Below are positions 11,706 to 53,523 of a DNA stretch of 64,000 nucleotides, piece by piece (positions within the stretch are counted from its first letter, which is position 1; each line of letters begins with the position of its first letter). Source of the stretch: Bacilli bacterium (GTDB taxonomy: Bacteria > Bacillota_I > Bacilli_A > RFN20 > DUOF01); the NCBI GenBank assembly GCA_017517765.1, contig JAFWYE010000010.1:2432-66431 (forward strand), written 5' to 3'. The notes beneath the pieces are model-generated. The model did not search any database, was not told the DNA's origin, and worked only from the letters and a program-made list of their open reading frames with translations. A program made the translations under genes and the position numbers.

Positions 11706-11818
11706 TTCTTGGTATAAGAAAATTGTCGAGTGGAAGTTAATGAATTTGCTTACATGAAAAATTTTTGAATGTTAAAATATAAGTGTTGAATTAATGGCTA
11801 GAGAGGAGATACTTATAA

Positions 11819-12307: not shown

Positions 12308-12333
12308 ATAAGTAATTGCTTATTCAATTTTTT
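12304..12333 (+). terminator. Rho-independent terminator
   Basis: Stem ttgaataag / cttattcaa, 6-nt loop, T-run. Confidence 0.65.
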
Positions 12334-12386
12334 AATATTAGTGACTTTAAAGCGTTTAAATTGTATAATTACTATGTGGTGATAAT

Positions 12387-15639: not shown

Positions 15640-15672
15640 ATATAATATTGATTATTAAATTAGGAGGAAAAT

Positions 15673-16419
15673 ATGATTTTTAAAAAAGCAAAATTTGATA
15701 TAGATTATAATAATATTCCTAAGCATGTTGCTTTTATAATGGATGGTAATGGTAGATGGGCAAAGAATAAAGGATTAATGAGGAGTGCAGGACACAAAGC
15801 TGGAGCAGAAACATTATTTTCTCTAGCTAAAGATGCTAAAGAACTAGGAGTTGAAGTTGTTACTGTATATGCTTTTTCTACTGAAAACTGGAAAAGAAAT
15901 AAGGAAGAGATAAATTATATATTTAAGTTAATGGAAACTGTATTTGAAGAAAAATACGAAGAAATGCAAAAAAATAATATTAAAGTTAGAATGATAGGAA
16001 CTCTAGATAGATTAGTTGGTGAATATGATTCATTAAAGAAAAAAATAGAAAAGATTATTGATGATACTAAAAATAATGATGGCATAACTTTAAATATCGC
16101 ATTTAACTATGGAAGTAAAGATGAAATAATTAGAGCGGTTAGAAATATAAGTAAAGATGTTAAAGAGGATAGGATTAAGATAGATGAGATAAATGAAGAC
16201 TTATTTGAAACATATCTTATGACACATGGATTGCCTAAAATTGACTTAATGATTAGAACAAGTGGTGAACAAAGATTATCTAACTTTTTGTTGTGGCAAC
16301 TAGCTTATACTGAGATGATTTTTACCTCTACATACTGGCCGGATTTTAATTCAAAAGAATTGAAAAAGTGTATTTTAGAGTATCAAAAACGAGATAGAAG
16401 ATACGGAAATGCTAAATAA
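15673..16419 (+). CDS. uppS: Undecaprenyl diphosphate synthase (isoprenyl transferase)
   Basis: HVAFIMDGNGRWA, FSTENWKR and RTSGEQRLSNFLLWQ. Confidence 0.9.
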   Translation: MIFKKAKFDIDYNNIPKHVAFIMDGNGRWAKNKGLMRSAGHKAGAETLFSLAKDAKELGVEVVTVYAFSTENWKRNKEEINYIFKLMETVFEEKYEEMQKNNIKVRMIGTLDRLVGEYDSLKKKIEKIIDDTKNNDGITLNIAFNYGSKDEIIRAVRNISKDVKEDRIKIDEINEDLFETYLMTHGLPKIDLMIRTSGEQRLSNFLLWQLAYTEMIFTSTYWPDFNSKELKKCILEYQKRDRRYGNAK

Positions 16420-32303: not shown

Positions 32304-32330
32304 TTAGCAATTCTAAAACAAGAGTGCTAA
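32304..32330 (+). promoter_or_regulatory. CIRCE operator (HrcA binding site)
   Basis: TTAGCAATT-N9-GAGTGCTAA. The right arm is perfect and the left arm matches 7 of 9 positions. It lies between the -10 box and the hrcA RBS. Confidence 0.85.
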
Positions 32331-32344
32331 AAGAGGTGAAAATA

Positions 32345-33364
32345 GTGGGTCTAACTAGAAAAGATACTATCTTGAAATATATAGTTGAACAATTTGTAAA
32401 GAGTGCTCAACCAGTTGGTAGTAACACTTTACTTGAAATATATAATTTACCTTATTCTAGTGCTACAATTCGTAATGATATGCTAGAACTTGAAAATATG
32501 GGAATGCTAGAAAAAACTCATACTTCTAGTGGCAGAGTTCCTAGCGCAAAGGGTTATAGATATTACATTGATCATCTAAGAGAAGAATTTAATGATGAAG
32601 AAAATTATGGCAAGCTTAGAAGATTAGTTAATGATTCTACAAGCCATGTTAGTGATGTTTTAAGACATAGTTGTGCGATTTTAAGTGAAATGACTTCGCT
32701 TACTACAATAATGCTTGGTCCTGATGAACTTGGGGAATTATTATCTCAAATTCAATTAATACCAATTAATACTAATAGTGCTGTATGTATATTCATAACT
32801 AGTAATGGTCATGTAGAGCATAAAACATTCAATGTCCCTAATGGCATTGATGCAAAGGACTTAGAAAAGTGTGTTCAAATATTAAATGATAGACTTGTTG
32901 GTACTCCACTTTATGGATTGGTAGAAAAAATGGTAACATTAAAACCTGTCTTGTCGCTTCAAATTGAAAAATATGAATTGCTAATTGCGGCATTTAAAGA
33001 CTTATTTAAAGATATGTCTAATGAGAAAGCAAGTGCTTGGGGAACTACACATTTGTTTAACCAACCCGAGTATAGTACTGATATAGAAAAACTAAAGAAT
33101 GCAGTTAAACTTATTGAGACTAATAGTGTTTGGAAGTTTATTGGAAATGAAGGAAAAGGAAAAATAAATGTTCAAATTGGTGTTGATGATGAGTTTAATG
33201 ATATGAGTGTTGTAAGTGTTGATGTAAATGTTCGAGGAAAAGAAGAAGCTAAAATTGCTCTTGTTGGTCCTAAAAGAATGGACTACTCTAAAGTTATTGG
33301 AATTATGGAATATTTATTATCGCAACTAGATGAAGCTTATGGGGAGGAAAATGAAGATGAGTGA
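32345..33364 (+). CDS. hrcA: Heat-inducible transcription repressor HrcA
   Basis: GTG 32345 follows the RBS AAGAGGTG. SNTLLE...PYSSATIRNDMLELENMGMLEKTHTSSGRVPS. The upstream part of the tracked ORF overlaps CIRCE. Confidence 0.9.
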   Translation: MGLTRKDTILKYIVEQFVKSAQPVGSNTLLEIYNLPYSSATIRNDMLELENMGMLEKTHTSSGRVPSAKGYRYYIDHLREEFNDEENYGKLRRLVNDSTSHVSDVLRHSCAILSEMTSLTTIMLGPDELGELLSQIQLIPINTNSAVCIFITSNGHVEHKTFNVPNGIDAKDLEKCVQILNDRLVGTPLYGLVEKMVTLKPVLSLQIEKYELLIAAFKDLFKDMSNEKASAWGTTHLFNQPEYSTDIEKLKNAVKLIETNSVWKFIGNEGKGKINVQIGVDDEFNDMSVVSVDVNVRGKEEAKIALVGPKRMDYSKVIGIMEYLLSQLDEAYGEENEDE

Positions 33365-33950
33365 TGAAACACTACAAGAAGAACTAGAAGAAGCTACTAG
33401 TGAAGAAGTTAAAGATAAGAAAAAGAAAAAAGAAAAGAAAAAGGATATAGTAAGTGAACTTGAGGACAAGTGTGCTGAACTAAATGAAAAATATTTATAT
33501 GCCTTAGCACAAATGAGGGACTTACATAAAACATATGAAAAAGAAAATGCTATTGCAGTTAAGTATGTTACCTATGATTTAATGGAAGAGTTACTTCCTA
33601 TAGTAGATATCTTTGGAATGGTGCTTGAAAATACAAATGTTCCAGATGAGGTTAAAGCATATTTTAAAGGATTTGAATTAGTATTTAATCAATTTAAGCA
33701 AGTTATGGATAACCATGGTGTGGTTGAGATTGTAACTAATAAAGGAGACAAGTTTGATCACAATGTACATAATGGAGTAGAAAAAGTAGAAATTGAGGAA
33801 GGCGAACATGATACAATCGCTGAAGTATTACAAAAAGGGTATAGAATTGGGGACAAGATTCTAAGACCTGTATCAGTTAAAGTTTACAGTTTAAAGGAAA
33901 CTAATGTTGAACAAGAAACTGCCGAAGTTAGTGAAGATAAGGGGGAATAA
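33351..33950 (+). CDS. grpE: Nucleotide exchange factor GrpE
   Basis: Acidic and Lys-rich N-terminus, then the GrpE core (FDHNVHNGV...GYRIGDKILRPV.V.V). The start is 33351 or 33357, after the RBS GGGGAGG. Confidence 0.9.
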   Translation: MKMSDETLQEELEEATSEEVKDKKKKKEKKKDIVSELEDKCAELNEKYLYALAQMRDLHKTYEKENAIAVKYVTYDLMEELLPIVDIFGMVLENTNVPDEVKAYFKGFELVFNQFKQVMDNHGVVEIVTNKGDKFDHNVHNGVEKVEIEEGEHDTIAEVLQKGYRIGDKILRPVSVKVYSLKETNVEQETAEVSEDKGE

Positions 33951-35786
<1,836 letters not shown>

Positions 35787-35808
35787 TTAAATATTAGGGA
35801 GGGGTATT

Positions 35809-36957
35809 ATGGCACAAAATAAAAGAGACTATTATGAAGTCTTGGGTATAGATAAAAGTGCGGATCAAGATACAATAAAGAAAGCATATAGAACACTTGC
35901 TAAAAAATACCACCCTGATATTAATAAATCTGAGGATGCAGTAGAAAAATTTAAAGAAGTACAAGAGGCTTATGAAATATTAAGTGATGAGAATAAAAAA
36001 TCTCTGTATGATCGTTATGGTCATGCAGGGGTTGATCCTCAAGCTAATGGTGGCTTTGGTGCTGGTGGATTCGGTGGAGCCAATGGTTTTAATTTCGGCG
36101 AATTCGATATGGGAGATATTTTCTCTTCTTTCTTTGGGGGAAGAGGTGCATCTCAGGGCGCTAGACGAACTTCACCTATGCAAGGAGAAGATAAATATCT
36201 TCAAATGGAAATTGACTTCTTAGAGGCGGCTTTTGGATGTAAAAAAGTTATTGCTTTAAATGTTGATGAACGTTGTAACGAGTGTAAGGGAACTGGTGCT
36301 AAAAATGGTACTGAGTTTGAAACTTGTCCTGATTGTCATGGTCATGGTAGTGTAAGAACACAACAAAGAACAATGTTTGGTGTATTTGAAACAACAACTA
36401 CATGTCCAAAATGTAATGGTAAAGGTAAAGTTATAAAAACTAAATGTGATGCATGTCATGGAGAAGGATATAACAGAAGAAAGGTTAATGTTGATGTAAA
36501 TGTACCTGCGGGTATAAATTCTGGACAACAACTTAGAATTGCTGGTAAGGGTGAAAGAGGAATTAATGGAGGTCCTAATGGGGATTTATATATCGAAATT
36601 CTTGTTTCAAACCATAAGCATTTTACTAGAAAAGGTACTGATATATACGTGACAATTCCTATATCATATGTCGATGCTGTTCTTGGATGTAAGATAGATG
36701 TTCCTACAATTCATGGTGATGTAAGTGTTGAGGTGCCATCTGGTATTCAAAATGCACAACAACTTAGAATTAAAGGTAAGGGTATAAAAGACTTAAGAAG
36801 CAATTCGATTGGTGATGAATATATAATTTTGGATATCAAAGTTCCTACTAAGTTATCTAAAGATGAAAAAGAATTATATAAAAAGCTTAAAGGAATTGAA
36901 GAAAAGCAAGGAGATAGTATCTTTGCAAAGTTTAAAAAAGCATTTAAATTAAAATAA
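35809..36957 (+). CDS. dnaJ: Molecular chaperone DnaJ
   Basis: J domain with HPD, a G/F region and four CxxCxGxG repeats. Confidence 0.97.
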
Positions 36958-36986
36958 GAGTTGAGTTTACTTAACTCTTTTTTTTC
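36956..36986 (+). terminator. Rho-independent terminator after dnaJ
   Basis: 10-bp stem aagagttgag / cttaactctt, loop ttta, 8-T run. Confidence 0.8.
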
Positions 36987-37105
36987 TTATTAGTATAATA
37001 AGAATATGTAGTTAATTGTAAAAAATTGTAAATCAGTGTTATTTTTTTAAAATTATAAGTTAATTTATGGTTTAAAATAACAATCTTTTTAAAAGAAAAG
37101 TTCAA

Positions 37106-37137
37106 TTATTGATTTAACAATCAATAAAAAGTATATT
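37106..37137 (+). promoter_or_regulatory. Candidate promoter plus inverted-repeat operator upstream of the four-gene cluster
   Basis: The inverted repeat ttattgat-N6-atcaataa (37106-37127) overlaps a -35 TTGATT (37109-37114). A 17-nt spacer leads to the -10 TATATT (37132-37137). Confidence 0.35.
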
Positions 37138-37146
37138 GGAATATAG

Positions 37147-37857
37147 GTGGAGGGGATTAGTATTAGTAAGAGATATTATTGGAAGAAAATCAGAGTGGCA
37201 TTGCTAATTCTAGCTTTTGCTATTACTTGGTTTTTACTTGTCCTTGCAATTAATGACAATACAAATGGTAATATGACTATTTATGTAGATAAAACTACTG
37301 CTAAAAAAACGCTTAGTTTATCTGAGTCTAGTCAGCTTACTGATCCAACAGGATTATTATATGGTCCATCAATGACTGGGGCTTGGGATCAAGATCCAGG
37401 TGCATTACCAGATTATTCGGATTTAATTGATGGAGACCAAAGTAGATTTGATGGTGCAATTTATGATTCTAGCCCTTCTGTAAATAAATATGTTGGTCAA
37501 AATTATTTGGCTTACACTTTCTATTTGTTTAATAGTGGTAGCGAGTCACTTGATTATTCTATGAAATTTAATATAGAACATGAAGAAAAATCTTTAGGAG
37601 ATGCCATTAGAGTTAGAGTATATGAAGATAGCGAAATTCCTACAACATATGGAAGAGAAGATTCTAGAGCAAGTGACGTATTTACTAATTTTGAAAATTC
37701 TACAACTATATTTACTAGAAACTATGAGGATTTTGAGGTGAATCAAGTCAGAAAATATAGTATTGTAATTTGGATTGATAAAAATGACATAGATACAACT
37801 AATGAAAAGATTGGTGGATCAATTAACTTGTCTATCCAATTTACGGTTACAGGATAG
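37147..37857 (+). CDS. Cluster gene A: signal-anchored or secreted protein (236 aa), paralog of gene B, possibly a TasA/camelysin-like beta-sandwich
   Basis: Basic n-region KRYYWKKIR plus a hydrophobic segment VALLILAFAITWFLLVLAI. The C-terminal motif is KYSIVIWIDKNDIDTTNEKIGGSINLSIQFTV. The start is uncertain because the GTG at 37147 lies inside an SD-like AGGTGGAGGGG. Confidence 0.6.
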   Translation: MEGISISKRYYWKKIRVALLILAFAITWFLLVLAINDNTNGNMTIYVDKTTAKKTLSLSESSQLTDPTGLLYGPSMTGAWDQDPGALPDYSDLIDGDQSRFDGAIYDSSPSVNKYVGQNYLAYTFYLFNSGSESLDYSMKFNIEHEEKSLGDAIRVRVYEDSEIPTTYGREDSRASDVFTNFENSTTIFTRNYEDFEVNQVRKYSIVIWIDKNDIDTTNEKIGGSINLSIQFTVTG

Positions 37858-37870
37858 GGGAGTGAGTGAT

Positions 37871-38698
37871 ATGAATTTTTTGAAAAAGTTATCTCTCTAT
37901 ATATGTATATTTGTTTTGACTATTAGTGTTTCATCTGTTGTTTATGCTGGGTTTACTAGACAATATACTCCTCAAGTAAAATCGTTTGGTATTACTGTAG
38001 CAACTCAAGAAAACATGCTTATCTCTACAACAGGAGATCCTTCAACATTTGCTGATATGGTTCAATTTTCTGATTTGGTTTCTAGTACAGATACTAATAT
38101 CCAACCATTAGAAGCAACAATTGAAGAAACTGGTAATGATTATACTAATCTTATTTTGAAAGATGGCGGAGGAAATACGGTATATACAAGTAAAACATCT
38201 GATGATAACGTTAATGTTAATGAAAAATATATAGAATTCAATTTGTATTTTATTGGAAGTAGCGATATGAATTTATATCTAGGGAATGATAGTGTTAGAA
38301 ACATTATTACATTAGATGAAAGTTCTACTGCTAATTTGAGTTTTACTGCAACTCAAAAGCAAACTTTATTATCTAGTATGAGAATAGCATTTCTAACATA
38401 TGCTACAACTTATCCTGAAGATTATACTGGTATTAATATAAGATATAGCGATTCGCCTGTATCTGCAAATATTTACTCAGTTTCTGCAACTGGAGATACA
38501 TATGAAGATTATATGTTTACTGAAGTTGGATATAACACAACTACTAGAGAAGGAACTATACTTGCTGAAACAATAAAAAATGAAACAACAAAGATAAAAG
38601 TTGTTATTTGGCTTGAAGGTGCCAATTTGGATACATCAATACTTAGCGCAATTGCTGATTTGAAATTTAATATAGCATTTCAAGCTGTTAAAGTTTAG
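37871..38698 (+). CDS. Cluster gene B: secreted protein (275 aa), paralog of gene A
   Basis: The ATG follows the RBS GGGGAG. The signal peptide MNFLKKLSLYICIFVLTISVSSVVYAGFT ends like SipW/TasA-type signal peptides. The C-terminal motif KIKVVIWLEGANLDTSILSAIADLKFNIAFQAV aligns with that of gene A. Confidence 0.65.
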   Translation: MNFLKKLSLYICIFVLTISVSSVVYAGFTRQYTPQVKSFGITVATQENMLISTTGDPSTFADMVQFSDLVSSTDTNIQPLEATIEETGNDYTNLILKDGGGNTVYTSKTSDDNVNVNEKYIEFNLYFIGSSDMNLYLGNDSVRNIITLDESSTANLSFTATQKQTLLSSMRIAFLTYATTYPEDYTGINIRYSDSPVSANIYSVSATGDTYEDYMFTEVGYNTTTREGTILAETIKNETTKIKVVIWLEGANLDTSILSAIADLKFNIAFQAVKV

Positions 38699-38712
38699 AA
38701 GGGAGAATAGAT

Positions 38713-40599
38713 ATGTCTGGATTTACAAAATTTTTTGGAAGAATAATGTCGGTTTTATGGAAAGATATCATAGCTTTCTTTAAGAGCATATTTGATTTTA
38801 TTGTAGGTATATTTCAAAAACTTATTAGTGATTTTTCTTACTATAAGTCAGTTTTTGATTTATATTCACAAGATTTCGATGCTTTAGGATGGATATTATT
38901 TGTTTTATCTATTTTATTAGTTTTAGGTTTATTTGCTCTTTTAGTTTGGGGTATCTATAAGATAAGTAAAAGAAGGTACGTTGCTAAAAGAAAAGTTAAA
39001 GATAAAATTGTTCTTTTAAGAGAAATAGATAAGTTAAATAATAAAGTTATTGACTTGATGGATCAAAGAAGCCAATTATTAGCATTAAAAACAGCTGAAC
39101 TTGGGTATGCTCCAACTAAAGAGGATTTAAAGAAAATTGAAGCAGCTAGAAAAAGAGCACAAGAAGCAATTGATAATCCTGAAGAAAATAAGTATGTTGG
39201 ATTTAAATTTAAAACAACTAAGAAAGGTGCCCCTGTATTTGATAAAAGAGGATTACCTGTTATTGAGCTTGAATATAAGCTTGGAGAAGATGGAAAACCT
39301 TTATTAGATGAAAATAAAAAACCTATACCTTTAATTGAATTTAAAACAGATAAAAAAGGTAAAATTTTATTTGATGCTAATGGATTACCAATTCCTGTTG
39401 ATCCAGTTGCTGCAGAAAATCAAATTGAAGCAGATAAAGCACTTGAAGGTGAAGGAAATCAAGAAGTTGGTGAAGATGGAGAAGCAATTCCTAGTGACTT
39501 AATTGCTAAAGCTAGATTCCCTAAACTTATTCGTATTGACTGGGACTATAGAAACTATGAATTTCCTGGTATGACAGAAGAAGATAAAAAGATGAATTTA
39601 AAAGAACTTGTAGATCGTTTTAGAAATTTCGCTGCAGGAAAATTACATCTATACTATAGTTTTAGAACTTTAGCATTATTCTTCTCTGGAATGGGAACAA
39701 CAAGATTTGCTATTCTTGAGGGTATCTCAGGTACAGGTAAAACTTCACTTCCATATGCATTTGGTAAATTCTTTAGAAATAGAAGTCCTATCGTTGCTGT
39801 TCAACCTTCATGGAAGGATAGATCAGAACTTATTGGATATCTAAATGAGTTTACTAAGAAGTTTAATGAATCTGTTTTCCTTGAAGAATTATATAAAATT
39901 GCTAAGCAAAAGGACCCACATATTTTGGTTCTAGACGAAATGAACTTGGCTCGTATTGAGTATTATTTCGCTGACTTCCTATCTATCATGGAAATGCCTA
40001 GTATGGATGAATGGATTATTGAAATTGTTAATACTGACCTTGAAGGTGACCCTGTGTTACTAGACCATGGTAAGTTCCTTATTCCAAAGAATGTTTGGTT
40101 CCTTGGAACAGCTAATAACGATGACTCTACATTCTCAATTACAGATAAGGTTTATGACCGTGCTATGAGTATGTCACTTAATAAAAAGACTGAAGTATTC
40201 GAACCTGAATGGGATGCAGATAGTATGTATATGGACAATGAGTTCTTTGTACAACTATTTGAAGATGCTAAAGCTAAATATTCAATTAGTGAAGAGGCTT
40301 TATCTAAGTTAGCTGCAATTGATAAATATATGGTACAAAACTTCAAGATTTCTTTCGGTAACCGTATCATGAAACAATTCAGATTATTTGTTCCTTGTTA
40401 TATTGGTTGTGGAGGAGAAGAATATGATGCGCTAGACCACCTTATTACACGTAAGATTTTACATAAACTAGAAGCATTGAATATTTCATTCATTAAGAAT
40501 GAATTAAAAGGATTAATTGTAGAAATTAATAAACAATTTGGAAAAGATGCATTTAGCGATGCAAAAGAATATATTAATGACTTATTGAAACAAGTATAA
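38713..40599 (+). CDS. Cluster gene C: membrane-anchored McrB-family AAA+ NTPase (628 aa)
   Basis: TM segment at aa 57-82, followed by a basic cluster. Next come a coiled coil, three 20-aa repeats, and Walker A GISGTGKT (39721-39744). Walker B and the McrB signature read LVLDEMNLARIEYYFADFLSIME (compare E. coli McrB DEINRANLSKVFGEVMMLME). GTANNDDST corresponds to GTMNTADRS. Confidence 0.7.
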   Translation: MSGFTKFFGRIMSVLWKDIIAFFKSIFDFIVGIFQKLISDFSYYKSVFDLYSQDFDALGWILFVLSILLVLGLFALLVWGIYKISKRRYVAKRKVKDKIVLLREIDKLNNKVIDLMDQRSQLLALKTAELGYAPTKEDLKKIEAARKRAQEAIDNPEENKYVGFKFKTTKKGAPVFDKRGLPVIELEYKLGEDGKPLLDENKKPIPLIEFKTDKKGKILFDANGLPIPVDPVAAENQIEADKALEGEGNQEVGEDGEAIPSDLIAKARFPKLIRIDWDYRNYEFPGMTEEDKKMNLKELVDRFRNFAAGKLHLYYSFRTLALFFSGMGTTRFAILEGISGTGKTSLPYAFGKFFRNRSPIVAVQPSWKDRSELIGYLNEFTKKFNESVFLEELYKIAKQKDPHILVLDEMNLARIEYYFADFLSIMEMPSMDEWIIEIVNTDLEGDPVLLDHGKFLIPKNVWFLGTANNDDSTFSITDKVYDRAMSMSLNKKTEVFEPEWDADSMYMDNEFFVQLFEDAKAKYSISEEALSKLAAIDKYMVQNFKISFGNRIMKQFRLFVPCYIGCGGEEYDALDHLITRKILHKLEALNISFIKNELKGLIVEINKQFGKDAFSDAKEYINDLLKQV

Positions 40600-40620
40600 T
40601 TAACAGTTAGGAGTGTTATA

Positions 40621-42306
40621 ATGGCTACTGATATAATTAAGAAATTTTGGGATAAATTAAGCCGTAGGCATGATAATCTTGGCAGAGATGATTCTTTTTA
40701 CGCACTTTTTTCTAATGGCTTTGATAGAGCTAAGATTAAGCTAGATCATATCACTAGAGTTGTAGTTAGAGAGTATGATGAAGAAACATTAAAGAAAATA
40801 GAAGATGGATTAGTAGCCATAGACACAATTGTAAGAAATCCTAAGCAATTCCTGAAGGTTGATGATGAAATCATCCCAGTAGAACTTGCTAAAAAAGTAA
40901 ATCAAGATTCTATTAAACATTTATCTAGCCATTCTCATCTTATTAATAGAGTTGAAGATGATGGAATGGTTATGCCAACTAGAATTCTTACTGGATTAAA
41001 AGATGACACTATTAATTTGTATGAGAACAGATTTGTTAGATCTCTTATTATTAACTTAGTTACTTTCTTTGATAGAAGATTTAGTGAGTTTTTAGATGAT
41101 GTAGATTTTTCATCTATGACTAAATTAGATAATAAAACTGCTTTTGTAGTAAGAAATTCTCAAATTAATTTAGATTTGCAAATGACTATTGTTACAGATA
41201 ACTTCAATAGAGATGACATTATTCAACTTGATGACTTATTTAGAAGAGTTGCTTGGATTAAGCATACTCTAGCTAAGTTATATGACTCTGATTTTATGAA
41301 GAGGCTTAATGGAGAAAAATTGGTAGTAGGTGAAATAAAAAGAACTAATACTATTAAAGGACACCCTCAATACAATATTTGCTATCATTTATGGAATCAC
41401 ATCATGAACTATCAAGGCATGGTTTTAGATTTTAGGGTAGAAGAAATTCCTATTGTTTTAAGCGATAAATATAAAAAGAAAATGAATAAGGCTTTCATGT
41501 ATCTTCATGGGGCAATTGATGCAGCTCAAAAAGATAATGAAAAATATGTTGAAGCATTAAATAAATCTTTAAATCTTAATATTAAACAGGGTAAAGTTAA
41601 GCTTATCAAGGATACTATTGATAGAAGCCAAGTTGAAGTTGTTAAAGAGGAACTTGATAAAACTATCTTTAAACCCGAACAACAAAAAGCTCTTGATAAA
41701 CTTTATGCAGAAAAAGAAAAACTTGAAACTCAACTTTCAGAGATGAAAGAAAGACATAGAGAAAAAGAAAGAGAAAATAGGGAAATGGAAGCTAATAAGA
41801 AAGAGTTCATTATCCTTAAAGAAAGAGAAATTAAAGATTTATTGAGAATGAAGCAATATGCCAAGGATAGTGCTGTTGTTAGAGCAAGAGATAAGAAAGA
41901 AAAAGAAATCGCTGCTCAAGAAGCTAAAAAAGTTGCGATTGTTAGAAATAAGAAATATGATGTTGTTTCTAAACTTGTTTCTTGGGAAGATAAGAAGAAA
42001 ATTAGTGAAAGAAGTATTGAGAAAGCTAATGGAAGTAAAGTTCTTCTTAATAGAGAAATTAAAGCTGGTATTAGAGTGGAAGAAAATACAGCTGAATTAA
42101 AGAAGATTGAGGCAGATATTATTCAATGGAATAAAACTATTGAAATGGCTAAGAAAAAGCGTGTTATTTTAGAGCAAGAAGAAGAGAGACTACAAGCTCA
42201 AATTGATAAAATTAATGCTTCTAATAAAGCTAGAAGAGAGAAACGTAGAGCAATATTGAAAGAAAAGAATAATCGTTTGATGTCTCAATATGAAGATTTA
42301 AAATAG
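40621..42306 (+). CDS. Cluster gene D: McrC/DUF2357-like N-terminal domain fused to a roughly 220-aa Lys/Glu-rich coiled coil (561 aa)
   Basis: It sits immediately downstream of the McrB-like gene. The LYENRFVRSLIINLVTF motif (41020-41040) resembles the xENRF[VIL] motif of DUF2357/McrC-like partners. No clear PD-(D/E)xK motif is visible. aa 335-561 carry a heptad-like K/E/R-rich sequence. Confidence 0.55.
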   Translation: MATDIIKKFWDKLSRRHDNLGRDDSFYALFSNGFDRAKIKLDHITRVVVREYDEETLKKIEDGLVAIDTIVRNPKQFLKVDDEIIPVELAKKVNQDSIKHLSSHSHLINRVEDDGMVMPTRILTGLKDDTINLYENRFVRSLIINLVTFFDRRFSEFLDDVDFSSMTKLDNKTAFVVRNSQINLDLQMTIVTDNFNRDDIIQLDDLFRRVAWIKHTLAKLYDSDFMKRLNGEKLVVGEIKRTNTIKGHPQYNICYHLWNHIMNYQGMVLDFRVEEIPIVLSDKYKKKMNKAFMYLHGAIDAAQKDNEKYVEALNKSLNLNIKQGKVKLIKDTIDRSQVEVVKEELDKTIFKPEQQKALDKLYAEKEKLETQLSEMKERHREKERENREMEANKKEFIILKEREIKDLLRMKQYAKDSAVVRARDKKEKEIAAQEAKKVAIVRNKKYDVVSKLVSWEDKKKISERSIEKANGSKVLLNREIKAGIRVEENTAELKKIEADIIQWNKTIEMAKKKRVILEQEEERLQAQIDKINASNKARREKRRAILKEKNNRLMSQYEDLK

Positions 42307-42314
42307 GTGATTAT

Positions 42315-43037
42315 ATGCAAGAGTATTTTGCGATTAATAAAATAAATGAAAAATTTATCTTGTCTGAACAAGATAATTTTCATATTGAAAGAGTTTTAAG
42401 AATGAAAAATGGTGATCATATAATAGTCACTTATGAATCTAAAAAATATGATTGTATTATTGATTTTAAAAACGGATTAAATGTTACGTATTTTTGTGAG
42501 TTAGAAGTTTCTAATGAGTTAGAATGTGAGGTTACTTTAATATATGGATTGCCAAAAAAAGATAAATTTGAAATGGTAGTACAAAAAAGTTGTGAACTAG
42601 GTGTTACTTCTATTGTCCCTTTTTTAGCTAAAAGAAGTATTCCTGTACTTGATGATAAAAATACAAATAAGAAGTTAGAAAGATGGAATATGATTGCTAA
42701 AGAAGCATGCGAACAATCAAAAAGAAATGAACTAGTTAAAGTTGTTCAACCAGTGAAATTAAAAGATCTATTAAACTATAAAAGTGAACTTAATTTGATT
42801 GCATATGAAGATTTAAATTGTGTTGGTAGTAGTCATTTATATTCACTTCTTGGAAATAATCCTAAAAGTATTACAATAGTTGTTGGACCTGAGGGTGGAT
42901 TTGATAAAGGTGAAGTAGATTTCTTAAGTGAAAATGGATTTATTTCTGTATCTTTAGGAAAAAGAATACTAAGAAGTGAAACTGCACCTTTATATATGCT
43001 TAGTGTCATTGGATTTATGAATGAGAGGAATAAGTAG
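42315..43037 (+). CDS. rsmE: 16S rRNA (uracil1498-N3)-methyltransferase
   Basis: RsmE layout with a C-terminal GPEGGF...E......G...VSLG.RILR.ETA. Confidence 0.85.
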   Translation: MQEYFAINKINEKFILSEQDNFHIERVLRMKNGDHIIVTYESKKYDCIIDFKNGLNVTYFCELEVSNELECEVTLIYGLPKKDKFEMVVQKSCELGVTSIVPFLAKRSIPVLDDKNTNKKLERWNMIAKEACEQSKRNELVKVVQPVKLKDLLNYKSELNLIAYEDLNCVGSSHLYSLLGNNPKSITIVVGPEGGFDKGEVDFLSENGFISVSLGKRILRSETAPLYMLSVIGFMNERNK

Positions 43038-44351
43038 ATGAAAAGTTTCTTAACTGTAAATTTAGGATGTAAAGTTAATGCATATGAGTGTGATGCTATT
43101 GCTAATATTTTAGAAGATAATGGATATATACTAGATGAGAATAATCCTGATCTTATAGTCATTAACACTTGTAGTGTTACTGCTACAAGCGATAGTAAAT
43201 CTAGGCAAAAAATACGAAGAATAATAAAGGAAAACCCAAATTCAATTATTTGTGTTATGGGATGTTATAGTCAAATTGCTCCAGAAGAAGTAAGTGCAAT
43301 CGAGGGAGTTAGTATTGTTATAGGTACTAGATATAGAGACAGAATTTTAGAATATGCACTTGAATTTGAAAAGAATAAAAAGCAAATTATTAAAATTGAT
43401 AATGCTAGAGAAAATAGTGAGTATGAAAACTTAACTGTATATAATTTTTATGATAATACTAGAGCATACTTAAAAATTCAGGATGGTTGTAATAATTTTT
43501 GTAGTTATTGCATAATTCCCTATACTAGAGGGTTAGTGAGAAGTAAGCCTAGAGAAACGGTATTAAAGGAAGCTCAAATATTAGCAGATAAAGGATACAA
43601 GGAACTTGTATTAACTGGTATTCATACGGGTGGATATGGGTTGGATTTTGAAAATTATAGATTTTATGATTTATTAAAAGACTTAATTAATGATGTGAAA
43701 GGAATTAAAAGGATCAGAATTTCTTCGATTGAAATTAATGAGCTTACAAATGAGGTTATAGAACTTATTAAATCTAATAATATTATTGTTAATCATATAC
43801 ATATTCCTATTCAATCTGGTTGTGATAAAACCCTAAAAGCAATGAATAGAAAGTATAACCTTGCTCAATTTGAAGAAAGAATAAAAATATTAAAAGACAA
43901 TATTGAAGATTTAAGTATTACTACGGATGTAATTGTAGGTTTTCCAAATGAGAGTGATGAGGATTTTGAAATTACTTATAATACACTTAAAAGAATCGGA
44001 TTCTCTAGACTACATGTATTCCCATTTTCATCTAGAAAAGGAACTGTTGCTAGTAACATGAAGAATCAAATTCATGGAGATATCAAAAAAGAACGCGTAA
44101 ATAGGCTAATTTTGCTTTCTAAGGAGCTAGAGAAGGAATATTACTCTAAGCATCTAAATAAGTCTGTAGAGGTCTTATTTGAGGAAAATAAGGAGGGTTA
44201 TTATAAGGGACTTACCACTAATTATTTGAAAGTTAGAGTTAAGAGCGATGAAAATGTTTCCAAATGCTTTAAACAAGTTAAACTAAATAAGATAATAGAT
44301 GTAGGAATGGACTATGAAATAGAGGGGGAAATTATAGATGAATTATGCTAG
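43038..44351 (+). CDS. mtaB: tRNA threonylcarbamoyladenosine methylthiotransferase MtaB
   Basis: UPF0004 N-terminal domain, radical SAM motif CNNFCSYCIIP, and a TRAM domain. It follows rsmE as in Bacillus (yqeU-yqeV). Confidence 0.85.
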   Translation: MKSFLTVNLGCKVNAYECDAIANILEDNGYILDENNPDLIVINTCSVTATSDSKSRQKIRRIIKENPNSIICVMGCYSQIAPEEVSAIEGVSIVIGTRYRDRILEYALEFEKNKKQIIKIDNARENSEYENLTVYNFYDNTRAYLKIQDGCNNFCSYCIIPYTRGLVRSKPRETVLKEAQILADKGYKELVLTGIHTGGYGLDFENYRFYDLLKDLINDVKGIKRIRISSIEINELTNEVIELIKSNNIIVNHIHIPIQSGCDKTLKAMNRKYNLAQFEERIKILKDNIEDLSITTDVIVGFPNESDEDFEITYNTLKRIGFSRLHVFPFSSRKGTVASNMKNQIHGDIKKERVNRLILLSKELEKEYYSKHLNKSVEVLFEENKEGYYKGLTTNYLKVRVKSDENVSKCFKQVKLNKIIDVGMDYEIEGEIIDELC

Positions 44352-49274: not shown

Positions 49275-50106
49275 GTATATAGAATTATATAGAGATTATA
49301 TGATTGTTACTAAAGGATATAGTATCAATACAGTAAATTCTTATTTAAGGGATATAAGACAATATTTTGAACTAACTAAGGGTAGGGGAGTAGAATATTA
49401 TTTTGAATATTTAGCAAAGAATAATTATAGTAGTGCAAGTCAAAATAGAAAGATCAGTGCACTTAATAACTATTACACTTACTTAATTTCATTTAATTAT
49501 TGTGATTATAATCCTTTTTATGGGGTTGAATTTGCTAAAAGGGAAAAGAAACTTCCTGAATATTTAAGTTATGACGAAGTACTAAGATTATTAGAAGTTG
49601 TAGAAGATAATTATTTAAATAGAGTTATATTAGAAGTTTTGTATGGCTGTGGTCTTAGAGTTAGTGAACTTTGCTCCTTAAAGATTAGTGATATTCATTT
49701 TGAAGAGTCACTTATTGAATGTTTTGGTAAGGGAAATAAACAAAGATATGTCCCAATTAATGAAGCTGCATTATTTGCGATAAATGATTATTTAGTCAAA
49801 TTTAGAAGTAAACTCGAATATAAAGAGAGTAATGATGTCTTGCTTTTAAATAAAAAGGGAAGAGTAATAAAAAGAGAATATATAAATAAAATGTTAAATA
49901 AAGCTAGTAAAAAAGCAGGTATTAATAAAAGAATACATCCACATATGCTAAGGCATACTTTTTCTACTCATTTATTAGAAAATGGTGCTAATTTGAGAAG
50001 TATTCAAACTATGCTAGGGCACAAAAATTTGTCTACAACTGAGATATATACGCATATAGATAAGAAAAAATTAATAGATGACTATAATAAATACTTTAAA
50101 GAATAG
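49267..50106 (+). CDS. xerD: Tyrosine recombinase XerD (RipX-like)
   Basis: C-terminal HMLRHTFSTHLLENGANLRSIQTMLGHKNLSTTEIYTH. The xerD-deoB neighbourhood matches B. subtilis ripX-drm. Confidence 0.8.
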   Translation: MNKYIELYRDYMIVTKGYSINTVNSYLRDIRQYFELTKGRGVEYYFEYLAKNNYSSASQNRKISALNNYYTYLISFNYCDYNPFYGVEFAKREKKLPEYLSYDEVLRLLEVVEDNYLNRVILEVLYGCGLRVSELCSLKISDIHFEESLIECFGKGNKQRYVPINEAALFAINDYLVKFRSKLEYKESNDVLLLNKKGRVIKREYINKMLNKASKKAGINKRIHPHMLRHTFSTHLLENGANLRSIQTMLGHKNLSTTEIYTHIDKKKLIDDYNKYFKE

Positions 50107-50150
50107 GTATTTTTAAAGATTTGATTTAAAATATTAGAGGTGATTTATTT

Positions 50151-51335
50151 ATGTATAAGAGAATATTTTTAATAGTGTTTGATTCACTTGGAATTGGAAA
50201 TGGGAAAGATGCTAAAAAGTTTGATGATGTAGGTAGTAATACTTTAAATAGTGTATTAGGAGCAGGGAAGTTTAATTTGCCTTGTCTTTCTAAATTGGGG
50301 TTTTTAAATTTGTCTAGTGATAGAAAGTATCATCAAAATGGTTATGAAGGTATTATTTGTAAATTAAATGAAGTTAGTGCAGGAAAAGATACATTAACTG
50401 GACATTATGAAATAATGGGATTAAAAGTAGAAAAACCTTCAGTTACTTTTACTGAAACTGGGTTCCCAGATGAGCTAATTGAAGAACTTGAAAGAAGATG
50501 GGGAAGAAAGATTATTGGTAATAAGAGTGCAAGTGGTACTGAAATTATTAAAGAATTAGGTGAAAGACATATGAAAACTGGTGAAGCTATAGTTTATACT
50601 AGTGCGGATTCAGTTCTTCAAATTGCTGCTAATGAAGCTGTAATACCATTAAAAGAATTATATAAGATGTGTGAGATAGCTAGAGAAGTTACTTTAAAGG
50701 ATGAATGGAAAGTAGATAGAATTATTGCTAGACCATTTATTGGTACTAATGCTACTAACTTTACTAGAACAAGTAACAGACATGACTATGCAACTTCACC
50801 ATTTGCTCCTACATATATGGATAATTTAAAAGAAGCTGGATATGATGTCATTGCTATTGGAAAGATTAATGATATCTTTAATGGTCAAGGAATAACTTAT
50901 TTTGAAAAAACTAAATCTAATATTGATGGCATGGAAAAAACTATTAGAATTGCTAAGGATGTAGATTTTACAGGACTATGTTTTGTTAACTTGGTTGAAT
51001 TTGATAGCGAATATGGTCATAGAAGAAATCCTATTGGCTATTTAAGATGCTTGGAAGATGCTGATGTGAAAATGAGAGCATTAGTTAATTCAATGAAAGA
51101 TGATGATTTATTAATCATTACTGCAGACCATGGAAATGATCCAACATACAAAGGAACAGATCATACACGTGAACAAGTTCCATTTGTTGCATATTCAAAA
51201 TCTCTTGTTAATAAAGGACATATGATTTCTAGTCAAGATACATTTGCTTGTATTGGTGCTACTATCATTGATAACTTTAATGTGGATGCAAAAGATCATC
51301 AAATTGGTAAATCTTTATTATCAATGATTAAATAA
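50151..51335 (+). CDS. deoB: Phosphopentomutase
   Basis: The N-terminal DSLGIG, the TADHGNDPT motif, and the length fit DeoB. Confidence 0.9.
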   Translation: MYKRIFLIVFDSLGIGNGKDAKKFDDVGSNTLNSVLGAGKFNLPCLSKLGFLNLSSDRKYHQNGYEGIICKLNEVSAGKDTLTGHYEIMGLKVEKPSVTFTETGFPDELIEELERRWGRKIIGNKSASGTEIIKELGERHMKTGEAIVYTSADSVLQIAANEAVIPLKELYKMCEIAREVTLKDEWKVDRIIARPFIGTNATNFTRTSNRHDYATSPFAPTYMDNLKEAGYDVIAIGKINDIFNGQGITYFEKTKSNIDGMEKTIRIAKDVDFTGLCFVNLVEFDSEYGHRRNPIGYLRCLEDADVKMRALVNSMKDDDLLIITADHGNDPTYKGTDHTREQVPFVAYSKSLVNKGHMISSQDTFACIGATIIDNFNVDAKDHQIGKSLLSMIK

Positions 51336-51363
51336 AAATCACATAATGTAAATTATGCGAAGT
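51336..51363 (-). other. dif: Candidate dif site (XerC/XerD chromosome dimer resolution site)
   Basis: The minus-strand 28-mer reads ACTTCGCATAA-TTTACA-TTATGTGATTT. It shares ACTTC with the B. subtilis dif left arm and CGCATAA with the E. coli left arm. It shares TTATGT with the XerD arm of both (consensus sequences recalled from memory). It lies at the gene-orientation switch, 1.2 kb from xerD. Confidence 0.6.
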
Positions 51364-51384
51364 TATAAAAAATAAATTTATTAA

Positions 51385-51414
51385 GGTGGTATTACTTGAA
51401 TATCGCCTTTTTTT
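51385..51414 (+). terminator. Rho-independent terminator after deoB
   Basis: Stem ggtggtatt / aatatcgcc (two G-U pairs), loop acttg, 7-T run. Confidence 0.65.
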
Positions 51415-51465
51415 ATTCCCTTCCCTACAATTTTACACAACTTTATTTTTTATCTTCTCATTAAG

Positions 51466-51494
51466 TTGAAGCTCTTGCCTTGCTTTTATATAAT
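51466..51494 (+). promoter_or_regulatory. Candidate sigma-A promoter
   Basis: TTGAAG, 17 nt, TATAAT, about 30 nt upstream of the RBS GAGGTGA. Confidence 0.45.
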
Positions 51495-51525
51495 AGGTTT
51501 ATACGGATTATTGAGGTGATTTACT

Positions 51526-51921
51526 ATGAAACACACTACATTAGATGTAAAGGCTATCGTTACCAAGGAAACTCTTGATAGAATGGCTGAAAAACAAAAA
51601 ACAGATAAGCCTATAACTCCTGAGGATGCTCCTACTAATGCTGAAATTACTGAAGGACGATCTAGAGAAAATTTAACTAGAGGCCAAAGATGGAGAATTA
51701 AGTTAAAGGCTGCTGGTGGTATGCTTGTTAAAGGATTAATTGCAGCAGCAGCAGTTATTGGTGTTATTAAACTATTTAATCCTGCTTTTGCTATACCTGC
51801 ATTACTTGTAGGTGCTGCTAACATGGGTACAATCGCTGATTTTGCATGTAAAGCAGTAGCGGCCTTCAAAGATGGTGCCACTGCCCTATTTACTAAAGCA
51901 ATGCCAGCAGGAGCGAGGTGA
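51526..51921 (+). CDS. Ala/Gly-rich small protein (131 aa): polar N-terminal half plus two hydrophobic or amphipathic helices
   Basis: Good RBS and promoter. The C-terminal half reads GGMLVKGLIAAAAVIGVIKLFNPAFAIPALLVGAANMGTIADFACKAVAAFKDGATALF. It is locally GC-richer than its surroundings. Confidence 0.6.
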   Translation: MKHTTLDVKAIVTKETLDRMAEKQKTDKPITPEDAPTNAEITEGRSRENLTRGQRWRIKLKAAGGMLVKGLIAAAAVIGVIKLFNPAFAIPALLVGAANMGTIADFACKAVAAFKDGATALFTKAMPAGAR

Positions 51922-51927
51922 AATTAA

Positions 51928-52188
51928 TTGGATAACGTAATTCAAAAAGATGATGTTGTTGTATTATCAGATAACAAAAGTTATTCTGTTTTGAGAGTTT
52001 TTGAATATGAGGGAGATTCATATGTGGTGTTTCTTCAAAGAACTGACTATGATGAAAAAAATCCCGTTGTTTTGTTTGCTAGGGAAAGAGTAGACGATGA
52101 AAAAGTTTCAGTAGACATTATTTTAGATGAAGATTTTATACGTGAACTTTCTGCTCACTTACAAAGCATTTCAGATGATAATGAATAA
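51928..52188 (+). CDS. DUF1292-family protein
   Basis: 86 aa. VVLSDNKSYSVLRVFEYEGDSYVVFLQ...VLFARE...DEDF fits the DUF1292 pattern. The TTG start follows the RBS GAGGTGA. Confidence 0.55.
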   Translation: MDNVIQKDDVVVLSDNKSYSVLRVFEYEGDSYVVFLQRTDYDEKNPVVLFARERVDDEKVSVDIILDEDFIRELSAHLQSISDDNE

Positions 52189-52214
52189 AGAGATCGATTG
52201 ATCTCTTTTTTTAT
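52188..52214. terminator. Hairpin between convergent genes (probably a bidirectional terminator)
   Basis: Stem aagagatc / gatctctt, loop gatt, T-run on the plus strand. Confidence 0.6.
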
Positions 52215-52666
52215 ATAGATAAAAGTAGTGTTTTTAAATCAAATGATATATTAGAGAGAACATTTATTGTATCATAGTCCCCTGCCTCACTAGTTTTGGA
52301 TATGATATCTTTAATTATATCTAGTATTATTTCTATTTCAGTATTTATATTCTCTATAATACTCTCCTCTTTGTAATCTTGTGATACGTAGGTTTTTATA
52401 GGACTAGTTAATTCTAAATCATCTAATTTAAATATTGGATATCCTTTTTTGATTTTTATTAAATTTTTTACTTTTTCTAAAGAATCATCTATTAAATAAG
52501 ATAATTCTTCTAGATTGGATGGTAATCCCAAGTTTTTCTCTATTATTGCATTACTAGAATAGTTCATTATATTTATTTTTTCAGTTAAAAAAGCTGCAAA
52601 TAGCTTATTTAAGGAAGATAGTTCATTCACTTCCCTATACATCGAATAATAATCATAATTTTTCAA
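52211..52666 (-). CDS. Hypothetical helical protein (about 151 aa), possibly a degenerate Dps/ferritin-like four-helix bundle
   Basis: The TTG start at 52666 lies 7 nt after AGGAGTGA (alternative ATG at 52702 has no RBS). The C-terminal EAGDYDTINVLSNISFDLKTLLLSI resembles the Dps C-terminal helix. No ferroxidase ligands are recognisable. Confidence 0.45.
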   Translation of the reverse strand: MKNYDYYSMYREVNELSSLNKLFAAFLTEKINIMNYSSNAIIEKNLGLPSNLEELSYLIDDSLEKVKNLIKIKKGYPIFKLDDLELTSPIKTYVSQDYKEESIIENINTEIEIILDIIKDIISKTSEAGDYDTINVLSNISFDLKTLLLSI

Positions 52667-52710
52667 ATAATCACTCCTAGTTATGTATATGAAAAAAAGC
52701 ATAACGTGTG

Positions 52711-53298
52711 CTATGCTTTAAAAAGTGATAAGTAATTTTGTACTTTATGACTTACTTTTAATAATTTAGAGTAATCTAATAGCTTATGATAATCTATATC
52801 ATCTTTATTGAAATAATAATTAATTAGCTTATTATATTCTCTATGATCAAATCTATTTTCATTTTTTATTATGTCACAAATAGAACGTTCTAGCTCATAA
52901 ACCTTTATATAACCATCATTAGTTTTTATTTTTGTTATTCCAATGTTATAATTGACACTAGAATTATAGAAAATCATGCAATTTTGGTACCTAGAAGCGT
53001 TGTAACCTTGTGGGACACTTATTTCTACCATCTTGGGTGCTTTCTTTAAAAAACCAAGCAAATTTAAGGCGGTAAAGCATGAATAGATTATTTGCTTATT
53101 ATTTTTTTGAAATTCATATAAAGGATTAATACTGTATTCTTTGTTAATACTATATACTCCCCTACCTATTTTGTAAATTCTATTTTGTTTTAATAGGAAA
53201 GTTAGATATATCCTGTGATAACCTAATTCGGTTACCTTTTTAGATGTAATCTTTCCTTCTTTTTTAATAATTTCATATAAATAATCTTCTTTTTTCAT
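52711..53298 (-). CDS. AbiEi-like (type IV toxin-antitoxin antitoxin family) wHTH protein
   Basis: The N-terminal GKITSKKVTELGYHRIYLTFLLKQNRIYKIGRGVYSI fits the AbiEi_4 pattern (G.vt...l..lG.....l..l...G.l.r..rGvY). Confidence 0.55.
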   Translation of the reverse strand: MKKEDYLYEIIKKEGKITSKKVTELGYHRIYLTFLLKQNRIYKIGRGVYSINKEYSINPLYEFQKNNKQIIYSCFTALNLLGFLKKAPKMVEISVPQGYNASRYQNCMIFYNSSVNYNIGITKIKTNDGYIKVYELERSICDIIKNENRFDHREYNKLINYYFNKDDIDYHKLLDYSKLLKVSHKVQNYLSLFKA

Positions 53299-53423
53299 CT
53301 TATACCTCTTTTCTTTAATTGTTTATCAAAAAAGAAAAAAAGTAAATACTATGCGAGCATAATTTTTATATATTACAAATATTCTTTAAATGATGACATG
53401 AAAAGAAAAAAAGTAATTTCATA

Positions 53424-53451
53424 AAAAAGAAAAAAGGATCAACTAGATCCT
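53424..53451 (-). terminator. Rho-independent terminator of the yqeG-nadD operon
   Basis: On the minus strand: aggatc-tagtt-gatcct followed by a T-rich run. Confidence 0.6.
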
Positions 53452-53523
53452 ATCTCCAAAAAAATTATTATATGCGCTAATATCTTTCATCGTAATAAGC
53501 TCCTATATTTTGTTATATATTGA

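Follow-up and report, generated by a model that had tools for sequence, protein, structure and literature searches.

A probable CoCoPALM-type McrB homolog with a predicted membrane anchor, encoded beside secreted proteins in a Bacilli genome

Introduction

So far, McrB-type GTPases are known solely from restriction and related defence systems, in which they act as motors. In Escherichia coli McrBC, the DUF2357 N-domain of McrC enters the McrB hexamer and stimulates the hydrolysis of GTP (Bell et al., 2024, PMC11090510). The Nx(x)D motif of McrB proteins is sensor-1-like and not an NKxD specificity motif, and its NxD form, in which E or another D usually comes next, is given for the branch that holds the CoCoNuT and CoCoPALM systems (Bell et al., 2024, PMC11090510). 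In CoCoPALM, the GTPase is described as fused to an FtsB-homologous domain with transmembrane and coiled-coil helices; the clade was named in a single paragraph and deferred to a later paper (Bell et al., 2024, PMC11090510). Our literature search found no later CoCoPALM paper. Here we analyse a McrB-like gene at positions 38713..40599 on the forward (+) strand of a 64,000-nucleotide stretch (hereafter the window) of contig JAFWYE010000010.1, from assembly GCA_017517765.1 of a Bacilli bacterium. The gene is an intact open reading frame (ORF) of 628 amino acids (aa), and we are confident that it encodes a CoCoPALM-type McrB homolog and not a restriction enzyme.

With CoCoPALM as described, the McrB-like protein shares an NxD-type McrB GTPase and an N-terminal transmembrane segment with a coiled coil, and the likeness extends to a coiled coil on the McrC homolog, to signal-peptidase genes within the family and to a large clade found mainly in Bacillota. 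In contrast, the window locus is without a signal peptidase, the component after which the system is named. With E. coli McrBC (PDB 6HZ4, 6UT6, 7VSR), which is the sole PDB family retrieved by sequence, it has in common an AAA+ core with Walker A, Walker B and Nx(x)D motifs, and a partner gene with a hexamer-plugging DUF2357 domain. Unlike E. coli McrB, however, it carries a membrane anchor and stalk where the DUF3578/ADAM reader would be, its signature is NxD and not NxxD, its McrC homolog lacks the PD-(D/E)xK nuclease, and its operon partners are secreted proteins instead of methyltransferases. CoCoNuT systems (CnuB/CnuC) share the NxD branch and the coiled coils on both the McrB and the McrC homolog (PMC11090510), but they are soluble, with nucleases (HEPN, PD-DxK), RNA-binding domains and predicted RNA targeting, and none of those domains is found here. 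New relative to the published paragraph are the loss of the nuclease, an intact SipW-type catalytic dyad, a secreted superfamily without a known fold, links to GGDEF/EAL, PilZ and adhesin genes, and a peptidase-less four-gene form in the dnaK-rsmE region.

Results

The AAA+ domain of the McrB-like protein spans aa 270-628 (39520..40596, + strand), as supported by invariant columns, by sequence matches to McrB alone in the PDB and by predicted local distance difference test (pLDDT) values of 80-93, with aa 509-628 forming the helical lid. Walker A (GISGTGKT, aa 337-344, 39721-39744) and Walker B (ILVLDE, aa 404-409, 39922-39939) are invariant in 118 homologs. The signature N468-x-D470-D471 (40114-40125) has invariant N468 and D470 in the same set, with D471 conserved in at least 90%, and it aligns with N-T-A-D of E. 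coli McrB. In the phmmer alignment, DEMNLARIEYYFADFLSIME corresponds residue for residue to DEINRANLSKVFGEVMMLME of E. coli McrB, and GTANNDDSTFSITDKVYDRA to GLMNTADRSLAVVDYALRRR. By these motifs the protein has an NxD-type McrB-family AAA+ domain, with NxD followed by D, and is a putative GTPase. A sequence-only reading of this DNA had claimed the Walker motifs, the position-by-position match to McrB and the equivalence of NNDD with NTAD, and all of these stand; its further view of NNDD as an NKxD-like, GTP-specifying element does not, since the motif is NxD plus D and sensor-1-like (PMC11090510), and the C-terminal 300 aa that it gave the AAA+ core fall short of a domain of about 360 aa. In one homolog (P0046, 646 aa), about 130 aa of the AAA+ domain are duplicated exactly (EWVVDIIPNSW...PAYVGTG occurs twice), probably as an assembly artefact.

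Searches of all PDB sequences returned E. coli McrB alone with phmmer (E 1.6e-4), and a family profile of 11 members, run with hmmsearch, also gave E. coli McrB as the only AAA+ protein (E 2.3e-5), the next matches having E > 0.1 and not being AAA+. No MoxR, dynein or MCM chain fell below E = 1 in either search. Among domain models, the top Pfam match was the generic AAA_5 (E 2.4e-4, slightly under the gathering cutoff) and the top NCBIfam match was the McrB model PRK11331, at 17.6 bits against a cutoff of 637 bits. Comparison of the AlphaFold2 model with the PDB using Foldseek was broader: MCM, dynein, BchI, MoxR-type proteins, BrxL and Thermococcus gammatolerans McrB all matched, the last at rank 11 (E 3.8e-6, template-modelling score, TMt, 0.33) with E values similar to those of MCM, dynein, BchI and MoxR. 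Structure was dropped as a means of telling McrB from MoxR, as the fold search left McrB, MoxR, MCM and dynein unseparated; the McrB assignment therefore draws on sequence and on the partner gene. A MoxR-type AAA+ identity was rejected, with no MoxR sequence match in the PDB or, beyond AAA_5, in Pfam, and no VWA-domain gene in the 84 loci surveyed (see below); the likeness is in the fold alone. The earlier placement in the McrB family, against which a MoxR or other AAA+ clade had been set as the alternative, is thus borne out by the sequence and profile searches, yet the fold search does not discriminate.

Upstream of the AAA+ core, Pfam and NCBIfam scans gave no domain match, hence no recognised DNA or RNA reader domain. 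The protein begins with an amphipathic helix (aa 1-52, 38713..38868, + strand), indicated by conservation (aromatic residues F4, F22/F23, Y44 and F55), by the AlphaFold2 model and by aa 1-40, whose helical hydrophobic moment is about 0.5. It is followed by a transmembrane helix (aa 57-82, 38881..38958, + strand), where the Kyte-Doolittle mean over 19 residues reaches its maximum of 3.02 at aa 61-79; all aligned homologs have a hydrophobic segment at this position. The 20 residues C-terminal of the helix contain nine K/R and one D/E, and the 15 residues N-terminal of it one K/R and three D/E. Because of this K/R-rich C-terminal flank, the positive-inside rule would place stalk and GTPase on the cytoplasmic side, and the predicted topology puts everything C-terminal of the transmembrane helix in the cytoplasm.

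A basic cluster, KISKRRYVAKRKVKDK, leads into a stalk helix that reaches aa 128 and is followed by a helix at aa 136-154 (38959..39174, + strand), as judged from the K/R count and from the AlphaFold2 model (mean pLDDT 77.5, built on 118 homologs). In the model, helix 2-52 precedes one continuous helix, 57-128, in which the transmembrane segment runs into the stalk; a low-confidence break at 124-134 separates it from helix 136-154. Residues L101, E104, N109, L115, K126 and G131 of the stalk are conserved, and the model suggests that the stalk is a cytoplasmic coiled coil. Our own heptad-periodicity heuristic for coiled coils proved noisy and was excluded from the evidence. Between stalk and AAA+ domain lies a duplicated repeat module (aa 164-226, 39202..39390, + strand) of short (D/K)xxGxP(I/V) beta units, modelled as short paired strands over aa 164-228. 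Self-alignment of KFKTTKKGAPVFDKRGLPV (aa 164-182) with EFKTDKKGKILFDANGLPI (aa 208-226) scores 60, a value reached by none of 500 shuffles (20.3 +/- 4.6), and this alignment shows the module to be genuinely duplicated. Only the close clade of the window has it; elsewhere in the family a low-complexity linker takes its place. The sequence-only reading had already assigned to this N-terminus an amphipathic head of 56 aa, a transmembrane segment whose coordinates proved exact, and a repeat module, and it had seen the anchor as standing in place of a reader domain; each of these agrees with our results, transmembrane helix and stalk being kept throughout the family. Its coiled coil at aa 95-155 holds as to the helices but not as a single unit, given the continuity of the stalk with the membrane helix and the break that follows. 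An artefact of gene fusion was rejected as well, the architecture being kept family-wide.

The McrB-like gene is followed, 22 nt downstream, by a gene for a McrC homolog without a nuclease (40621..42306, + strand), which is identified as McrC solely by Pfam DUF2357. The DUF2357 core (aa 64-171, 40810-41133, E 5.8e-9) is succeeded by a second conserved block (aa 203-284) and by a K/E-rich helical tail (aa ~300-561, 41518-42303), recognised from its composition: the C-terminal 261 aa are 51% K/E/R/Q/D, with four P and G together. Across the McrC-like family, DUF2357 was matched in 25 of 40 members and a nuclease family in none. Invariant residues are H100, L101, P119, Y134, E135, N136, F149, R153, I239 and T242; conservation ends at about residue 285, and all 40 aligned homologs have a charged, variable tail. 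No conserved acidic/lysine triad of the PD-(D/E)xK type follows the DUF2357 core in this 40-member family, and the conserved P238-I239...K/T/N block does not fit that motif. When the family profile was run against the PDB, coiled-coil proteins alone were matched and McrC was not retrieved, low-complexity coiled-coil matches having swamped the search. Judged from these alignments, the domain that plugs the ring is retained in the McrC homolog, and a long helical tail has taken the place of the nuclease. In the Faecalibacillus locus L059 (~9000-15700), the McrC-like ORF (fam3) reaches 2247 aa, whereas most loci have one of about 640 aa; it has either fused with a downstream protein or gained a very long coiled-coil extension.

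Homologs of the McrB-like protein number at least 8000, and every name given by the source among the matches listed is 'hypothetical protein'; the exact protein cluster of the window protein includes MBR3891714.1, so named, from a metagenome-assembled genome of a Bacilli bacterium. The head, transmembrane helix, basic flank, stalk, linker and AAA+ domain recur in all sampled homologs. When one genome was scanned for each species, relatives turned up in at least 587 GTDB species, with carriers that include Acholeplasma granularum, Izemoplasmatales, Anaeroplasma, Erysipelotrichaceae, Lachnospiraceae, Oscillospiraceae and Collinsella. A membrane-tethered McrB-like motor had been called unusual when the sequence was first read; with a family of this size and spread, which moreover has a published name, it is not. 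Four loci (L027, L055, L064, L071) come from bins labelled Bacteroidales, Bacteroides uniformis or Paludibacteraceae, which probably reflects contamination during binning and not a true occurrence in Bacteroidota.

We called and clustered the ORFs in 84 loci (L numbers; protein families are given as fam), and, for the 37 loci flanked by 4 kb or more on each side, counted peptidase, secreted-protein and GGDEF/EAL genes. A recurrent gene order emerged. It runs from GGDEF/EAL genes (often two) through fam5 (~250 aa), fam0 (~310 aa, one to four copies) and fam1 to the McrB-like gene, and continues with the DUF2357 gene, a second fam1 gene, more small proteins with the same signal and, in some loci, a giant protein. 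The DUF2357 gene occupies position +1 or +2 relative to the McrB-like gene in 49 of 55 loci. Both the fam1 peptidase and the fam0/5/6 secreted superfamily are present in 35 of the 37 loci, GGDEF/EAL genes in 21 of the 37, and a VWA-domain gene in none of the 84. The fam1 proteins are archaeal/ER-type (SipW-like) signal peptidases I, scoring above the TIGR02228 cutoff and matching the SipW model NF046067 with E 3e-20. Of 80 sequences, 79-80 have the nucleophile Ser (in Ser-Met) and the general-base His; the catalytic dyad is intact, and the peptidases appear to be active. SipA of streptococci is, unlike them, an inactive pilus chaperone.

Further genes of some operons encode proteins related to cyclic di-GMP (c-di-GMP) and giant adhesin-like proteins. 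A PilZ protein, a c-di-GMP receptor (fam37, L033:9709-10386, also in L067 and L079; E 3.5e-13), is encoded within some operons just before a fam5 gene. Many operons are flanked by genes for giant proteins of 2000-2700 aa. One example, of 2672 aa (fam27, L024:158-8173, also in L020, L034 and L036), contains six beta-sandwich domains of the cadherin-like type (E 9e-101); another (fam17, L022:13675-20952, also in L029, L043 and L056) has no Pfam match. Several variants of the operon were seen. In Oscillospiraceae-type loci, a stand-alone EAL gene (L003:9552-10307, L004:5151-5906), for a c-di-GMP phosphodiesterase, lies between the McrB-like and McrC-like genes. In the Erysipelotrichaceae type (L038, L045, L050, L059, L060, L064, L068, L071, L074, L076), fam6 (~350 aa, homologous to fam0) is directly upstream of the McrB-like gene, replacing fam0 and the upstream peptidase, and a single peptidase gene, GGDEF/EAL genes and a phosphorylase-superfamily gene are found downstream. 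Izemoplasmatales-type operons (L002:12147-12938, L013, L015, L023, L026, L044) end with fam15, a metallo-beta-lactamase-fold protein of ~263 aa that matches the Anti-Pycsar Apyc1 family.

The cluster of the window consists of four genes: a fam5-like gene, a divergent fam0-like gene, the McrB-like gene and the McrC-like gene. Gene 1 (37147..37857, + strand) encodes a fam5-type protein of 217-236 aa with an N-terminal signal anchor, its start codon being uncertain within 37147-37204. It has no Pfam, NCBIfam or PHROG match and was assigned by the fam5 profile (E 1.1e-63) and by blastp to the fam5 protein of L041 (E 1.9e-21); fam5-type proteins usually come first in the secreted-protein part of the operons. 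Gene 2 (37871..38698, + strand) encodes a secreted, beta-rich protein of 275 aa that hhalign identifies as a divergent fam0 member (99.2%, E 1.5e-19); the mechanical ORF opens at 37802, and the likely start is the ATG of MNFLKK at 37871. Its signal helix ends in V-Y-A|G-F-T (the bar marks the expected cleavage site), and its C-terminal motif is IWLEGxxLD, in which E249 is invariant across the secreted superfamily. The AlphaFold2 model of gene 2 (pLDDT 78.5, predicted template-modelling score 0.78) has a helix at 2-29 followed by beta strands. Searches of all four cluster genes against PHROGs and NCBIfam returned nothing useful.

Profile comparison with hhalign joins fam0, fam5, fam6 and the 275-aa protein of the window in one superfamily (98-99.7%; fam5 with fam0, 98.6%), whereas the likeness of fam8, fam13, fam14 and fam18 to fam0 is limited to the signal region. 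Typically, the signal helix ends in T-[YF]-A-W-F-[ST], obeying the -3/-1 rule with a nearly invariant Ala, and the C-terminal motif is IWLEGxDxD with the invariant Glu. This signal end is similar to that of TasA, TWA|AFN. The superfamily has 915 homologs; the sole name given to them by the source is 'hypothetical protein', and the 120 matches listed of the 915 include none with a Pfam domain. The secreted-protein sequences show neither an LPXTG motif nor a C-terminal anchor, and they match no camelysin/TasA model of Pfam or NCBIfam. A TasA-like or pilin-like fold, to which the signal motif had pointed, is not supported for these proteins by any significant Foldseek match, the comparison of the gene 2 model with the TasA-like archaeal bundling pilin 7UEG giving E 0.034 and a probability of 0.21.

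At 82-93% identity, relatives share this four-gene set in the interval from dnaJ to rsmE; those at 70-72% identity still encode a fam1 peptidase of 177 aa (profile E 1e-45) immediately before the McrB-like gene. Because the more distant relatives carry fam1 and the closer ones do not, the peptidase has been lost from the cluster in the sub-lineage of the window. The position between dnaJ and rsmE is kept over 70-97% identity, and on account of this synteny a prophage or mobile island was rejected; outside the lineage of the window, the chromosomal position varies. Directly after dnaJ, a terminator-like hairpin with a T-run is overlapped by a promoter-like TTAACT-17-TATAAT (36956..36999, + strand); both are pattern matches from a consensus scan, and the element is probably the start of the transcription unit of the cluster. 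At the other end, 8 nt separate the stop codon of the McrC-like gene from the start of rsmE. Compared with the 93%-identical locus L088, the McrB-like gene has a ratio of nonsynonymous to synonymous substitution rates (dN/dS) of 0.058 and the McrC-like gene one of 0.064; the ratio is 0.073 for dnaJ, 0.159 for rsmE, 0.13 for gene 1 and 0.24 for gene 2, values that are approximate since the synonymous rates (dS 0.75-1.2) are near saturation. The cluster is functional and vertically inherited, with purifying selection on the motor genes as strong as that on dnaJ.

Discussion

The McrB-like protein most likely acts in the cytoplasm, as a GTPase motor or platform that serves a fibre or matrix at the cell surface, and not in restriction. 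Taken by itself, the evidence tips the balance slightly towards a surface-assembly function; the combined statement, that of a CoCoPALM McrB homolog which acts in surface assembly, we consider reasonably probable. By analogy with E. coli McrBC, six McrB-like subunits would form a membrane-tethered ring with the McrC-like protein as a shaft in its pore. Hydrolysis of GTP would be converted into conformational work through the coiled-coil stalks, the transmembrane helices and perhaps the amphipathic heads, and with its help the secreted proteins encoded alongside would be exported, extracted from the membrane or polymerised to form a fibre or matrix at the cell surface. In the many species where GGDEF/EAL genes are present, assembly would be under the control of c-di-GMP. 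The tie of the window cluster itself to processing and regulation is made only by homology to the fuller operons, because the 64 kb contain neither a peptidase nor a c-di-GMP gene.

Two known surface systems offer a comparison. The tapA-sipW-tasA operon of Bacillus subtilis likewise encodes a dedicated ER/archaeal-type signal peptidase beside secreted beta-rich substrates, with a signal end of the form T-aromatic-A|x-F. TasA fibres, however, need no nucleoside triphosphatase (NTPase), and the secreted proteins described here match no camelysin/TasA model and have a model fold that is not significantly TasA-like. The ATPases of type IV pili and type II secretion systems (PilB/GspE) are functional analogues only: like the ring proposed here, they are cytoplasmic hexameric NTPases at the membrane, and the subunits that they serve begin with a hydrophobic helix and continue into a beta-rich domain. 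In contrast to those systems, the ATPase here is of the AAA+ McrB type and not of the PilT/VirB11 class, the peptidase is of the SipW type and not a prepilin peptidase, and the surveyed loci have no PilC-like platform gene.

It is tempting to go further, although we do so tentatively and regard the following as doubtful. A McrBC-derived ring with six transmembrane stalks and a nuclease-less McrC shaft might power a hitherto unrecognised class of machine for the biogenesis of surface fibres or pili, in which a restriction motor was exapted for protein assembly, with subunits of a new fold, SipW-type processing and control by c-di-GMP. Such a class would be spread widely among monoderms and bacteria without a wall (Acholeplasmatales, Izemoplasmatales, Erysipelotrichaceae, Lachnospiraceae, Oscillospiraceae, Collinsella). 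If true, a defence motor has been re-used for cell-surface biogenesis, and this could explain adhesive structures of many gut and environmental Gram-positive and wall-less bacteria. With Acholeplasma granularum ATCC 19168 and Collinsella sp. TF11-5AC as cultivable carriers, the question is directly testable.

Several observations weigh against a surface-assembly role for a CoCoPALM protein. CoCoPALM systems are known from computational description alone. Profiles of fam1 and of GGDEF/EAL have no match anywhere in the window when its 64 kb are translated in all six frames. The head of the McrB-like protein may be N-out or a helical hairpin; the best 19-residue Kyte-Doolittle mean outside the transmembrane helix (1.59 at aa 20-38) is borderline for a second one. 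No homology of the anchor to FtsB/DivIC was detected, with no Pfam match at E <=10 for five N-terminal modules and no FtsB chain in the PDB profile search. FtsB itself has a topology opposite to the C-in topology predicted here. In the Foldseek comparison, MoxR-type chains scored higher (template-modelling score 0.50-0.58) than T. gammatolerans McrB. The model of gene 2 gave no significant Foldseek match in the PDB to pilins, TasA or any fold (best E 4e-3, template-modelling score <=0.24). Finally, the PADLOC defence-candidate model PDC-M26A is hit by all tested family members (about 130 bits, E 1e-37 to 1e-41), with the match limited to the AAA+ core.

This last match bears directly on a defence function. 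The protein could belong to a membrane-associated derivative of type IV restriction that acts against phages or plasmids, its ring sensing invading nucleic acid or a perturbation of the envelope and triggering abortive infection or exclusion, with the secreted proteins as a surface shield or decoy. The characterised members of the McrB family are indeed restriction motors, most McrB relatives are defence proteins and the nearest NxD branch holds the defence-like CoCoNuT systems (PMC11090510). PDC-M26A is a sister GTPase family and not the same system, however, because the match is confined to the AAA+ core and the McrC homologs match no PADLOC model; it probably lies near the CoCoNuT GTPases, and our literature search found no paper that mentions PDC-M26. 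The lack of a reader domain, and of a nuclease or recognisable effector in the McrC homolog, also argues against defence, as does vertical inheritance within the dnaK-dnaJ/rsmE-mtaB housekeeping region with dN/dS values like those of dnaJ, which is unlike a mobile defence island. The sequence-only reading had argued against a classical type IV restriction function from the anchor; the absence of a nuclease (0 of 40) and an operon made up of peptidases, secreted proteins and c-di-GMP genes strengthen that argument, and we judge a defence function unlikely.

A housekeeping machine of the envelope that makes no fibres is similarly improbable. The ring would be a membrane unfoldase, an extraction motor or part of a division complex, and the secreted neighbours only some of its clients. 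Such a role would suit the place of the window cluster beside chaperone genes, its constraint like that of dnaJ, the want of a dedicated peptidase and an ATPase that is structurally as MoxR-like, that is, chaperone-like, as it is McrB-like; moreover, the transmembrane and coiled-coil module was called FtsB-like by Bell et al. (PMC11090510). Against it, the secreted superfamily and the SipW link persist in 35 of 37 loci, yet the chromosomal position varies outside the lineage of the window. The VWA partner typical of MoxR systems occurs in no locus. Similarity to FtsB/DivIC went undetected in Pfam and PDB profiles, and the predicted cytoplasmic coiled coil is opposite to that of FtsB. A functionless, decaying CoCoPALM remnant that has lost its peptidases and downstream genes could account for the four genes of the window, where no SipW-type peptidase or c-di-GMP gene is left in 64 kb while relatives at 70-72% identity keep the peptidase, but it is extremely improbable: the four ORFs are intact, the same four-gene form recurs at 82-93% identity, all catalytic motifs are invariant, and dN/dS values of 0.06 for the motor genes and 0.13-0.24 for the secreted ones argue strongly against decay.

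The cluster is set in a conserved hrcA-grpE-dnaK-dnaJ ... rsmE-mtaB region (32324-44351 of the window). In many Bacillota, prmA occupies the slot taken here by the cluster; none of ten ORFs tested between 33954 and 46612 had a PrmA-like Pfam match. Farther downstream, within 50000-54000, gene orientation switches from + to - at ~52.2 kb, the GC skew changes sign there and the cumulative skew peaks at ~52 kb, the pattern expected at a replication terminus.

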